Positions 33,065-35,723 of a stretch of 64,000 nt of DNA are shown one piece after another; position 1 is the first letter of the stretch; every line of letters begins with the position of its first letter. The stretch covers positions 64,001 to 128,000 of IMG/VR virus record IMGVR_UViG_3300009103_000004, one strand, 5' to 3'. The position numbers and the translations under genes were made by a program. Source of the stretch: a virus. The notes beneath the pieces were generated by a model, which searched no databases, was not told the origin of the DNA, and saw only the letters and a list, made by a program, of their open reading frames with translations.

Positions 33065-34061
33065 AACATAACAGAGCTTATACGAGCGTAACGTAACCCC
33101 CGTAACTTATCCCAAACAATCACATACGTAACTTGCCAAATCAGACAAGACACATCGCTACAAATCTCAAAACAACCCATCTTAGCTAAACCCACCAGAT
33201 CAGACAGAACATACCATATCATATTTTAACTCAGCTTAACGAGACACAACTCGACTAAAGCCATACCAATTGCTCAACATATCTGACCTAAAGCAACCCA
33301 GCTCATCCAAACGGAGCAAATCGAAGCTCGCCGGAACCCAACTCATCTTAACCTATCTGACATACCAGAACTGATACCATCTCATAACAGCGAAACTCAT
33401 CATAACAGAGCTGACTCAACAAAGCGGAACAAGTCTCATCATAGCGAAACTCAACAAAACAGAGCGGAACAGCCAAATCTTACCAGAACAAAGCGAAGCT
33501 TACCCCAGCTGAACTTATACTATCTTAACCCAGCTAATCAAATCAGCCACATTGGAGCGGAACTTATCCCATCTGAACCAGAAGCAACTTGACTCATCGT
33601 ATCTGCCGCAACTGATCGCAAAGCACCGCAACATAGCACACTAGAGCATATAATACCAGATCACATCTGCCGAAGCGAAACATAACTGAACATATCTTAA
33701 GCCAACAGGGCTCAACGAAACATATCTGACTTAACAGAACGTAGCCCAACTAAACACAGCAAAAGACTACTTAACATGTAACGCCATATCTGACTTAACA
33801 CAACTCGGGGCAACTCAGCACGTAGCATACCTACCGAACTTACGAGAACTTATCTGACTTAACGGAACGTATCTATACAAATCTCAGCCCATCCCATCTT
33901 AACTTATCTGACATAACAGAGCTGAACAAACCTGGCCGGAACCAAACCCATATCAACTCAGCTCGACAAAGGGGCATCGAATCTGACTTAACAGAGCATA
34001 GCTTATACGAACGTAGCAAAACGAATCCCAGCTAGACGAATCTGCCATAGCAAAACGGAAT
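33065..34061 (-). ncRNA. 5-nt-period guide-like array (GHT-NN)n, about 14 full units
   Basis: Plus strand reads A[ATG]C-NN in phase; boundary ATC-W-G[AC]C (first triplet AGC at 33409, AAC at 33468) at 33140, 33199, 33281, 33355, 33409, 33468, 33542, 33601, 33665, 33724, 33788, 33852, 33906, 33981, 34040. Confidence 0.88.
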
Positions 34062-34077
34062 CATTGGCTACAACAAA

Positions 34078-34108
34078 TGGGTGGCCAGGGTAGGAGCCTG
34101 ACCACCCA
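34078..34108 (-). promoter_or_regulatory. Hairpin at array 5' boundary (processing or termination signal)
   Basis: TGGGTGGTCAGG-CTCCTAC-CCTGGCCACCCA followed by TTTGTTG. Confidence 0.6.
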
Positions 34109-34132
34109 AATGAAAATTACTAAGATTAGCTC

Positions 34133-34993
34133 CTAGCCGGCAATTTCGAACTGACCCCAGCTTCCTACTGCTTTGGGGCTACTGGGCCTCCACTCACCAA
34201 TTCCATTATGGAATCCGGCAAGCTGGATAAGGTTAATGATAGCCTGACCGCTTATTATGTTCGGGCTATACTGAACCAGTATCTCTGTGGACCAGTCGTG
34301 TATTACCGGGCGGTAGCGCAGGTCTTTATCTTTGCCTACGCCCAAGCTAACCGGATCTTGGCGCATTGATACGCCTAGTGAGTGCAGGTGTTTCATTTCC
34401 TTCACTCTCTCGGGTGTCACCCATCTGGACTTGGGCTCTTCATCGAGCTCATCGGTGAACCGATAGTCCATTTTGGTCTTGAGGTTCTCTGGCAGGTGGC
34501 CGTGCTGGCTAGTCAGTGGCAGCATCTGATTATCACGCTTATCCGTACCAAATATGAAGAACCATGAACGCGAAGCTATCATAGTCAGATTTGGGTCGTT
34601 AACGTGACGACAAGCATCCACTGTGGCCTTTTTGACCTGAATGGCAGTTGCGCATAAGTGCGTTGGCTTGCCCTTCTTGTCGAACAGCCAGTAACCTGCA
34701 TCCTTCATTTCCTGGAACTGATCCTTGGGTGGGCGATCTTTTCCCTGAACCTTCAACCCGTCATGCTTCTTTTCTAGATCAAGTCGGGTCTTGTTGGTTA
34801 CGGTGTGACAACCGTAGATGTTAGCTCCCATTGATTTCAGGGTGAGTGTAAACTCCTCAACCTTCCGTTCCGGGATGTATATGTCTAGAGCTGTACTCTC
34901 TGGTGGAGTGCTCTTTTTACTTACTGATCCGGTTCCTACTTTTTTAGCTGCTGCCTTTTTGGCAGGAGCTTTCTTTTTAGCTGTTGTAGCCAT
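34133..34993 (-). CDS. Stand-alone Cas7/RAMP-like protein (Vipr-like effector candidate)
   Basis: C-terminal YRP...W...+QY...AG...GIGEWRP...GSWGQFEI Gly-rich loop typical of RAMP folds; no cas1/cas3/cas5 nearby; adjacent to the array. Confidence 0.75.
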   Translation of the reverse strand: MATTAKKKAPAKKAAAKKVGTGSVSKKSTPPESTALDIYIPERKVEEFTLTLKSMGANIYGCHTVTNKTRLDLEKKHDGLKVQGKDRPPKDQFQEMKDAGYWLFDKKGKPTHLCATAIQVKKATVDACRHVNDPNLTMIASRSWFFIFGTDKRDNQMLPLTSQHGHLPENLKTKMDYRFTDELDEEPKSRWVTPERVKEMKHLHSLGVSMRQDPVSLGVGKDKDLRYRPVIHDWSTEILVQYSPNIISGQAIINLIQLAGFHNGIGEWRPSSPKAVGSWGQFEIAG

Positions 34994-35018
34994 ATTTTTT
35001 TATTTCTCCTTATTATTA

Positions 35019-35669
35019 TTATCCTGTTCTTACTTTATTGATCTGCTTGCGCACTTCAGCAGGCTTTATCTCTAGGCGCTTTGCCAAAGATATAACCAAA
35101 GGCTCAAGCTGATCGAGTTCTTCAATGAGTTCGGTAAATCCATTGAACTTACCGAATGCTCCCATTAAATATCTATACATTTCATACGTGACCGTTGACT
35201 TATGGTCCTCATTAAGAAGCACTGAATCGATTGTCCTGTAGGCCTTTCTGGCATCCTTTGATTTGGTACTGTGAAGAAACCTAACCACGGATACCTTCCT
35301 ACTCTCACCACCGGTACTACGAATGTTGACACGAACTACCTTAGCCTTGATAGAACGTATTACATACCGTGCCTCATCCTGACGGCGCTTATGTGCAGCA
35401 TCTGCGTCATCCCAAGTAAAGTAGGAATGCATGGCAGACTTTTTCTTACTAGCTGCAGTTATAACATCATCAGGCAAGATCGAGCCGAGCTTGTTGGCCA
35501 AGGCTTGGAGCTCAAGTCCAACCTTCTCAACGTCTGCGTCCCTAATGGAACTCCCTTCAGCTTTTACAAACCCTACTACTTCGATATCCTCTGTGGTGTC
35601 CAACGAACCCACATCAACTACTTCAGCCTCTACGGCTTTTGCCTTTATGGCTCTCTTAGTTTTAGTCAT
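35019..35669 (-). CDS. Partner protein of the RAMP-like gene
   Basis: P..V+.AA....S.+HSYFTWDD..AA...R..+AR.+IRSI motif; apparently co-transcribed with 34133-34993. Confidence 0.7.
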   Translation of the reverse strand: MTKTKRAIKAKAVEAEVVDVGSLDTTEDIEVVGFVKAEGSSIRDADVEKVGLELQALANKLGSILPDDVITAASKKKSAMHSYFTWDDADAAHKRRQDEARYVIRSIKAKVVRVNIRSTGGESRKVSVVRFLHSTKSKDARKAYRTIDSVLLNEDHKSTVTYEMYRYLMGAFGKFNGFTELIEELDQLEPLVISLAKRLEIKPAEVRKQINKVRTG

Positions 35670-35713
35670 AGATATAAAAAAGGTGCCTTAGGGGAAACCT
35701 AAGACACCCAAAG

Positions 35714-35723
35714 TATATAACAC
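35714..35723 (-). promoter_or_regulatory. GTGTTATATA promoter motif for the RAMP operon
   Basis: Exact motif copy, followed by hairpin 35682-35708 and T6. Confidence 0.65.

Follow-up and report, generated by a model that had tools for sequence, protein, structure and literature searches.

A probable staggered-array VIPR system with guides matching hsdM, C5-methylase and GGACT genes in an uncultured 167-kb phage

VIPR (Viral Interference Programmable Repeat) is an RNA-guided DNA silencer related to CRISPR (clustered regularly interspaced short palindromic repeats) that was described in 2026 (bioRxiv 10.64898/2026.04.26.720920,.720927 and 10.64898/2026.10.15.759431). As set out in these preprints, it is composed of Vipr, a repeat-associated mysterious protein (RAMP), an accessory vap gene, and guide RNAs, the vrRNAs, made of GGY/NN pentamers. 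In this study, we analysed a window of 64,000 nucleotides, positions 64,001 to 128,000 of the virus record IMGVR_UViG_3300009103_000004, in which positions 33,065 to 35,723 carry two minus-strand genes followed by about 1 kb of pentameric non-coding DNA. A preliminary description of this DNA had proposed a candidate RNA-guided system made of a Cas7/RAMP-like protein, a partner gene and a guide array; these parts stand, and the system, rather than being a new one, is here lowered to a member of VIPR. The locus is very probably a staggered-array VIPR system of an uncultured phage with a genome of 167 kb.

The VIPR preprints report a cryo-electron microscopy structure of the system of phage SUSP1, in which every repeat is occupied by one protomer that sequesters the triplet and presents NN. 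Bound to double-stranded DNA, the complex skips one target base per repeat, usually the codon wobble, and represses transcription; characterised VIPR works on either strand, and perturbed NN pairing abolished silencing in the SUSP1 system. Seven VIPR types are distinguished, with "a related consensus" in some, and the repeat forms listed are YNNGG, NNNGG, YNNNG and NNNNG. In staggered arrays, according to the legend of fig. S18, neighbouring vrRNAs overlap by 1 nt, so that each begins where its predecessor ends (bioRxiv 10.64898/2026.04.26.720920). A wobble-aligned guide on a catalytic core has already been published for a satellite recombinase, and satellites use solo vrRNAs as decoys (VIPR preprints).

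A Vipr homologue and its staggered pentamer array

The 286-aa protein of the window matched the "SUSP1 Vipr protein" of the Protein Data Bank (36pp_D) with an E-value of 1.7e-5, keeping the thumb Y-R-P and the G-loop G-x-G-[D/E]-W-R-P, and a profile of its clade aligned with SUSP1-type Vipr in hhalign at a probability of 97.4%. BLASTP against the Vipr of Mycobacterium phage Quico gave 2e-19, and all three proteins are included in phrog_4652. The VIPR systems with which the preliminary description compared the locus are real, being those of the three preprints, and the window protein is a homologue of SUSP1 Vipr. Its RAMP fold and glycine-rich loop, read from the C-terminus in that description, were borne out as well: in a Foldseek search with an AlphaFold (AF2) model built from 102 sequences (predicted local distance difference test, pLDDT, 91.5), all top matches were Csm3/Cas7 subunits at probability 1.0, and VIA-align gave Z 11.2 to 9g9f_E and Z 9.9 to 6ifn_E, the latter being the Cas7 query of the VIPR authors, who applied a cut-off of Z >= 6. 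A Pfam search of the 286-aa protein gave no hit.

Residues 1-40 of the window Vipr (window 34874-34993, minus strand) form a disordered tail rich in Lys, Ala and Thr (pLDDT 62-80). Such a tail is conserved throughout the clade, is missing from the SUSP1-type and Quico proteins (195-199 aa), and may add non-specific nucleic-acid binding. An insert of ~50 residues in two helices, placed before the thumb D-L-R-Y-R-P (residues ~164-222; window 34328-34504, minus strand), is present throughout the clade and not in Quico Vipr, and could be tied to the altered triplet of the array, G-H-T (H being A, C or T) versus GGY. The RNA triplet is gripped in SUSP1 Vipr by R138, D177, W178 and R179, and the residues cradling G2 (R138 and W178) are conserved in the window Vipr.

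Relatives of Vipr detected by tblastn belong to Mycobacterium, Gordonia, Pseudomonas, cyanobacterial and Felix-O1-like phages. The clade profile recovered 2801 cluster representatives at E <= 1e-3 and 7 at E <= 1e-30, the query's own cluster included, so the clade forms a small and divergent offshoot within a large family. Close relatives, at 44-65% identity, came from metagenome sources only and, as we infer, probably lie outside the NCBI-based census of the preprint; a peptide-pattern search for relatives in IMG/VR confirmed none.

The array downstream of vipr was read on the minus strand (34140-33051), on which base identity at lag 5 was 0.43 against a baseline of ~0.24, with values of 0.41 and 0.39 at lags 10 and 15. 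A second series of peaks at lags 9, 14, 19 and onwards (5n+4) rose with distance, the pattern that regular 1-nt phase slips would give, and no other strongly 5-periodic stretch was found in the 167-kb genome. A phase-tracking model seeded with G1/T3 laid out 177 pentamers with G at position 1 (.89), T at position 3 (.89) and near-uniform positions 4-5, while position 2 was mostly T (.44), A (.29) or C (.19) and depleted in G (.09); expectation maximisation run without seeding on a related array, L007, returned the same motif, G-[A/T]-T-N-N, and the same boundaries. In the notation of the preprints the window repeat is YNNGN, which is not among the listed forms. There were 16 phase slips of -1 nt, at boundaries with the consensus G[T/G]C[A/T]G followed by AT, of which the C is invariant in all 14 boundaries that passed the filter and the last G is G1 of the next unit. 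Boundary spacings were 59, 82, 74, 54, 59, 74, 59, 64, 59, 64, 64, 54 and 134, the last being 75 + 59 merged by the removal of the boundary at 33987 in the filter; counted apart, 12 of 14 spacings are 5n+4. The tail of the array below ~33145 is degenerate, and an internal irregularity lies at 33986-33971. The array had been described beforehand as about 1 kb of non-coding G[T/A/C]T-NN pentamers with a predicted autocorrelation peak at lag 5, a phase slip of 1 nt at each boundary and the same list of spacings, and in each of these respects our analysis agreed, the slip being that of the published staggered architecture with its overlap of 1 nt.

No open reading frame (ORF) longer than 55 aa was found within the array, and the folding predicted for its RNA did not exceed that of shuffled sequence (z +0.86 on 33600-33899), which fits a guide held by protein. 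An Rfam search of 32900-35900 gave no match and no CRISPR repeat family. A reading of the array as structured RNA was rejected on the folding result and the lack of an Rfam match, and a reading as a CRISPR array on the 5-nt period, the lack of repeat-spacer structure and the lack of an Rfam CRISPR repeat.

Pentamer arrays downstream of homologues had been proposed as a check on this interpretation, and they were present: four contigs with close homologues (L002, L005, L006 and L007) carry a 5-periodic array 3' of vipr, on the same strand as the gene. L002 also has a shorter copy, L004, and L006 and L007 bear the same array, leaving 3 distinct arrays besides that of the window. The array of L007 reads G-[A/T]-T-N-N with boundaries G[G/T]CAG; in L002 (L002:1308-2107; Vipr 53% identical) position 1 is G (.41) or C (.35), and T3 (.86) is the only strong position.

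Decoded guides and the genes they resemble

Guides were decoded under the published 1-nt-skip rule, with NN-x read as codons. The guide reading KKGGEFYTPK, a motif of HsdM of type I restriction-modification systems, had a single exact match in IMG/VR, in an HsdM gene with N6_Mtase and HsdM_N domains. In 596 Gb of species genomes, scanned with this guide only, there were more than 120 exact matches (a lower bound) where ~1 is expected by chance; all 80 matches inspected were in frame, in ORFs of 293-973 aa, and 4/4 sampled carried N6_Mtase and HsdM_N. The guide reading TGGFPCQAFSV had 8 exact matches in IMG/VR, 8/8 of them in frame on motif IV of C5 methylases (PF00145 in 5/5 sampled). A third guide, ATG-KVFVYGTLK, matched GGACT (AIG2-like) genes, with 9 exact matches in IMG/VR that all covered the beginning of a small gene, start codon and initial residues (9/9); 5/5 sampled were PF06094, and the best full-length match was 22/24. 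The exact C5 and GGACT matches lie on viral contigs and the hsdM matches are mostly cellular. Skip-0 and skip-2 controls yielded background only across the fetched loci and unbiased gene samples, bar one skip-0 window of 18/20.

Endozoicomonas and related genera occur several times among the exact matches listed for the hsdM guide, and the genome of Endozoicomonas acroporae (G001, reached via L025) yielded 18 matches to N6_Mtase, of which many are HsdM-like genes of full length; Endozoicomonas as host or opponent of the phage is a weak lead.

The phage itself offered no target. The best NN match in its own genome was ~77% under skip 0, 1 or 2, and PF00145, PF02384 and PF06094 were all absent from it, so the three target families are missing. 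The guides occur in both orientations relative to the gene, hsdM and GGACT in the sense orientation and C5-methylase in the antisense one, which fits targeting of DNA and not of mRNA. When the other guides of the window, L002, L005 and L007 were compared with the flanks of the fetched hsdM, methylase and GGACT loci, none rose above the skip-0/skip-2 background; hence no guides against hsdR or hsdS were found.

The hsdM and C5-methylase guides are common to the window, L007 and L002. Relative to the window, NN identity of the hsdM guide is 20/20 in L007 and 19/20 in L002, and that of the C5-methylase guide 21/22 and 20/20, respectively, while at position 2 roughly half the sites of the two guides agree. 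Across 61 orthologous pentamers, identity at positions 1 to 5 was 0.62, 0.51, 0.80, 0.98 and 0.97. The 97-98% identity of NN beside a drifting position 2 provides direct evolutionary evidence that NN carries the information and position 2 does not. In addition, motif IV in its other common form is addressed by an extra guide in both L007 and L002.

By analogy with SUSP1, the array would be transcribed from the minus strand, and Vipr protomers would polymerise on the RNA, one per pentamer, holding the G-H-T triplet and presenting NN; the preliminary description had arrived at this same arrangement, which for SUSP1 is the published cryo-electron microscopy mechanism. At each G[T/G]C[A/T]G boundary, in which C is kept at position 3, often as a putatively ancestral G-G-C, the register would slip by 1 base, so that one filament ends and the next starts, giving ~16 guides of 10-15 repeats. 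As in SUSP1, each ribonucleoprotein would then bind double-stranded DNA, reading it as NN-x-NN-x, and block transcription, and the vap-like partner would probably assist on the DNA. Its likely role, speculative as it is, would be to silence accessory genes, those for DNA modification included, in the host or in competing mobile elements. A tentative proposal, well short of even odds, is that phages of this lineage direct RNA-guided silencing at DNA-modification genes, with guides placed on wobble-proof catalytic motifs of hsdM and C5 methylases and also on GGACT.

Several points weigh against the identification of the locus as a VIPR system or against the role proposed for it. The triplet is G-H-T and not GGY, with G depleted at position 2, so RNA recognition may differ in detail from that of SUSP1; staggered arrays are not among the architectures confirmed by small-RNA sequencing in the VIPR preprint; and the fold of the partner matched known structures below noise level (best Foldseek E 9e-3, to RctB; best VIA-align Z 5.8, with several winged-helix regulators at Z ~5). 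Guides 33544 and 33357 had zero exact matches at full length in IMG/VR and when trimmed in JGI metagenomes, and guides 33470 and 34042 had zero in IMG/VR; a Walker-A motif is a guess for 33544, with no exact match behind it. In unbiased gene samples from Gammaproteobacteria (29 hsdM and 30 C5-methylase genes), the hsdM guide was perfect in 0/29, at least 90% identical in 8/29 and at least 80% in 18/29, with skip-0 and skip-2 controls reaching 13-16/20, and the C5 guide was perfect in 0/30 and reached at least 18/22 in 6/30. Silencing after infection, moreover, leaves a methylase that has already been made, so the benefit to the phage is uncertain.

The samples bear most directly on how wide the silencing might be. 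If each guide silenced a whole enzyme family, all hsdM or all C5 methylases, the array would be a general anti-restriction and anti-modification device, which we consider unlikely, though it is the alternative that fares best. It would accord with the placing of guides on the most constrained motifs with the wobble base skipped, with the conservation of two guides in three diverged arrays, with the second motif IV guide of L007 and L002, and with the spread of the exact hsdM matches over many phyla (more than 120 species, a lower bound). However, the absence of perfect matches from both samples shows that each guide suits one sub-type of its motif and not the whole family, and SUSP1 silencing did not survive perturbed NN pairing.

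The resemblance between guides and motifs might instead stem from the way guides arise, by copying of resident genes, or from their use as decoys or regulators, and not from selection for silencing. VIPR has no known adaptation machinery and no known mechanism for generating guides, satellites employ solo vrRNAs as decoys, and four tested guides found no exact match in the scanned collections; yet near-complete conservation of NN where other positions are near random speaks for purifying selection on the pairing bases, and a phage that lacks the three gene families cannot have copied the guides from genes of its own. We regard this explanation as improbable. A little more improbable still is a complex that targets RNA, its Vipr filament pairing with mRNAs as Csm3 of type III CRISPR does: the top fold matches are all RNA-targeting Csm3/Cmr/Cas7-11 subunits and the C5-methylase guide is antisense to its gene, but the hsdM and GGACT guides have the sense of the mRNA and so are unable to pair with it, and characterised VIPR binds double-stranded DNA on either strand. 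A decaying, functionless tandem repeat lying beside a RAMP-like gene by chance, for which the degenerate units of the tail and of the internal irregularity might be cited, is scarcely credible, as the gene-plus-array arrangement recurs in related loci and in Mycobacterium and Felix-O1-like phages, and NN-only conservation and exact in-frame targets are not expected of neutral repeats.

If silencing of DNA-modification genes by this phage lineage is true, the phage could switch off a restriction-modification operon of its host or strip rival phages of protective methylases. This would amount to RNA-guided counter-defence, or to sabotage of the DNA modification of rivals, for neither of which, nor for methylases or restriction-modification at all, did we find mention in the main texts of the VIPR preprints; a literature search on phage GGACT in anti-defence found nothing useful. 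With hsdM, C5-methylase and GGACT genes as candidate targets, the range published so far, satellites and prophage regulators, widens to DNA-modification genes, and RNA guidance by phages against restriction-modification is now directly testable in laboratory strains. Two guides that three diverged phages preserve solely in their NN positions provide a natural test of the code. The relaxed triplet G-H-T, together with a relative that keeps only T3 well, suggests that the register between protein and RNA can be maintained with fewer fixed bases than GGY.

Layout of the locus and its partner gene

Features of the locus are collected in Table 1. Both minus-strand genes and the hairpin that follows vipr had been noticed in the preliminary description and were found again where it had placed them, the hairpin with its 12 pairs and T-rich tail. 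The promoter motif that it put at 35714 held up in part: a -10-like word, TGTGTTATATAYT, occurs in 4 copies in the genome, each 5' of a minus-strand gene (window 35707-35726, ~49503 and ~52098, minus strand, and genome position 140600), while a sigma-70 consensus scan made no call at ~35714, leaving a sigma-70 promoter there unsupported.

Table 1. Positions of the features of the VIPR locus in the window
Feature	Position	Strand	Remarks
Extended -10-like promoter word	35707..35726	minus	5' of the vap-like gene; identified by recurrence in the genome; putative promoter
Terminator-like leader hairpin and T-run	35681..35709	minus	between promoter word and vap start codon; 12-pair stem with 6 G-C pairs
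vap-like accessory gene, 216 aa	35019..35669	minus	phrog_15946
vipr gene, 286 aa, RAMP/Cas7-like	34133..34993	minus	basic N-terminal tail and G-loop
Terminator-like hairpin between vipr and array	34078..34108	minus	12-pair stem with 8 G-C pairs; T-rich tail
Staggered vrRNA array	33065..34046	minus	~16 units of 10-15 G-H-T-N-N pentamers each; G[T/G]C[A/T]G boundary pentamers; 1-nt overlap
hsdM-type guide, 10 pentamers	33859..33908	minus	NN = KKGGEFYTPK, sense orientation
GGACT-type guide, 12 pentamers	33731..33790	minus	last 10 NN = ATG-KVFVYGTLK
C5-methylase-type guide, 11 pentamers	33549..33603	minus	opposite strand = TGGFPCQAFSV

In the 5' region of vap (35681-35726, minus strand), the promoter word, the hairpin, the T-run and the start codon stand in succession. 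This order of promoter and leader terminator could represent an attenuator; the leader hairpin could also terminate the upstream gene. A G+C-rich hairpin similar to that between vipr and the array lies 3' of vipr in L007 too.

The locus consists of vipr and one adjoining accessory gene, with a single RAMP gene; no other cas gene lies next to these two genes, the rest of the window not having been covered by a systematic cas scan. In GenBank phages, blastn found no match to the locus. The gene order 3' of the array (window 30927-33050, minus strand), with small genes, a DUF6915-like gene and a Glyco_transf_90-like gene, is common to L002:2108-4162, indicating that these metagenomic contigs derive from related large phages.

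The 216-aa partner matches its PHROG family, phrog_15946, with an E-value of 5.5e-11, and its homologues lie directly 5' of vipr in L002, L004, L005 and L006. A Pfam search gave no hit, a comparison with the protein atlas returned viral hypothetical clusters only, and a word-based homologue search found the partner alone. A sequence match to miniGq in the Protein Data Bank was judged spurious.

Comparison with CRISPR-Cas, SUSP1 and Quico

Csm3 of type III-A CRISPR-Cas (9g9f_E, 6ifn_E) and the window Vipr share the fold of the RNA-recognition motif (RRM) and RAMP, the thumb and the glycine-rich loop (Z 9.9-11.2 over ~165 residues), and protomers of Csm3, too, assemble along a guide RNA with regular spacing. 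This spacing is 5 nt in VIPR and 6 nt in Csm3, however, and VIPR sequesters three bases, presents two and reads its target with gaps. The sequence identity of Vipr to Csm3/Cas7 is 6-13%, and in contrast to class 1 CRISPR-Cas the locus has no CRISPR repeats; the direct repeats with spacers and the cas genes that define CRISPR-Cas are lacking at the locus.

With the type II VIPR of Escherichia phage SUSP1, the window has in common a homologous Vipr in which the thumb Arg and G-loop are kept, a phage-borne two-gene locus flanked by non-coding guides, specificity residing in NN, a 1-nt skip on the codon wobble, and guides on the coding sequence of catalytic cores. The guides of SUSP1, though, are separate RNAs, each ~100 nt long, in which 9-16 GGY-NN repeats are followed by an invariant 3' tail with a pseudoknot, whereas those of the window overlap by 1 nt and lack a tail; SUSP1 carries 4 guides, most of them directed at a single satellite, and the window ~16, of which the three decoded correspond to hsdM, C5-methylase and GGACT. 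The vap1 of SUSP1 belongs to a different PHROG, phrog_5926, and SUSP1-type vap1 bears no similarity to the window partner. Type II VIPR, known from SUSP1 and P. fulva, is marked by vap1 and by separate vrRNAs with a structured 3' tail, and the window has neither.

The system of Quico (gp57/gp58) is closer in its partner and in the form of its array. Its Vipr homologue shares an extension after the G-loop W-R-P, the gene beside its vipr is of the same accessory family as the window partner, phrog_15946 (BLASTP 1e-9), and its boundary pentamer ends in C-A-G, the last G opening the next unit with no long 3' tail between units. The Quico array (L018:2072-2330, upstream of gp57) sits in the early lytic region beside repressor, Cro and antirepressor genes, and both genes are annotated as hypothetical proteins. 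It differs from the window array in reading GGC-NN, with boundaries of GGCA followed by GGC, where the window has G-H-T and a depletion of G at position 2. The arrangement is also reversed: the accessory gene is 5' of vipr in the window and 3' in Quico, while the array is 3' in the window and 5' in Quico. At 286 aa against 199 aa, the window Vipr adds its basic N-terminal tail and the insert of ~50 residues. Set among the described systems, then, the locus is a staggered-array VIPR with a Quico-type partner gene and not a type II (SUSP1) one, and it is set apart by a relaxed triplet, a larger Vipr and ~16 guides.

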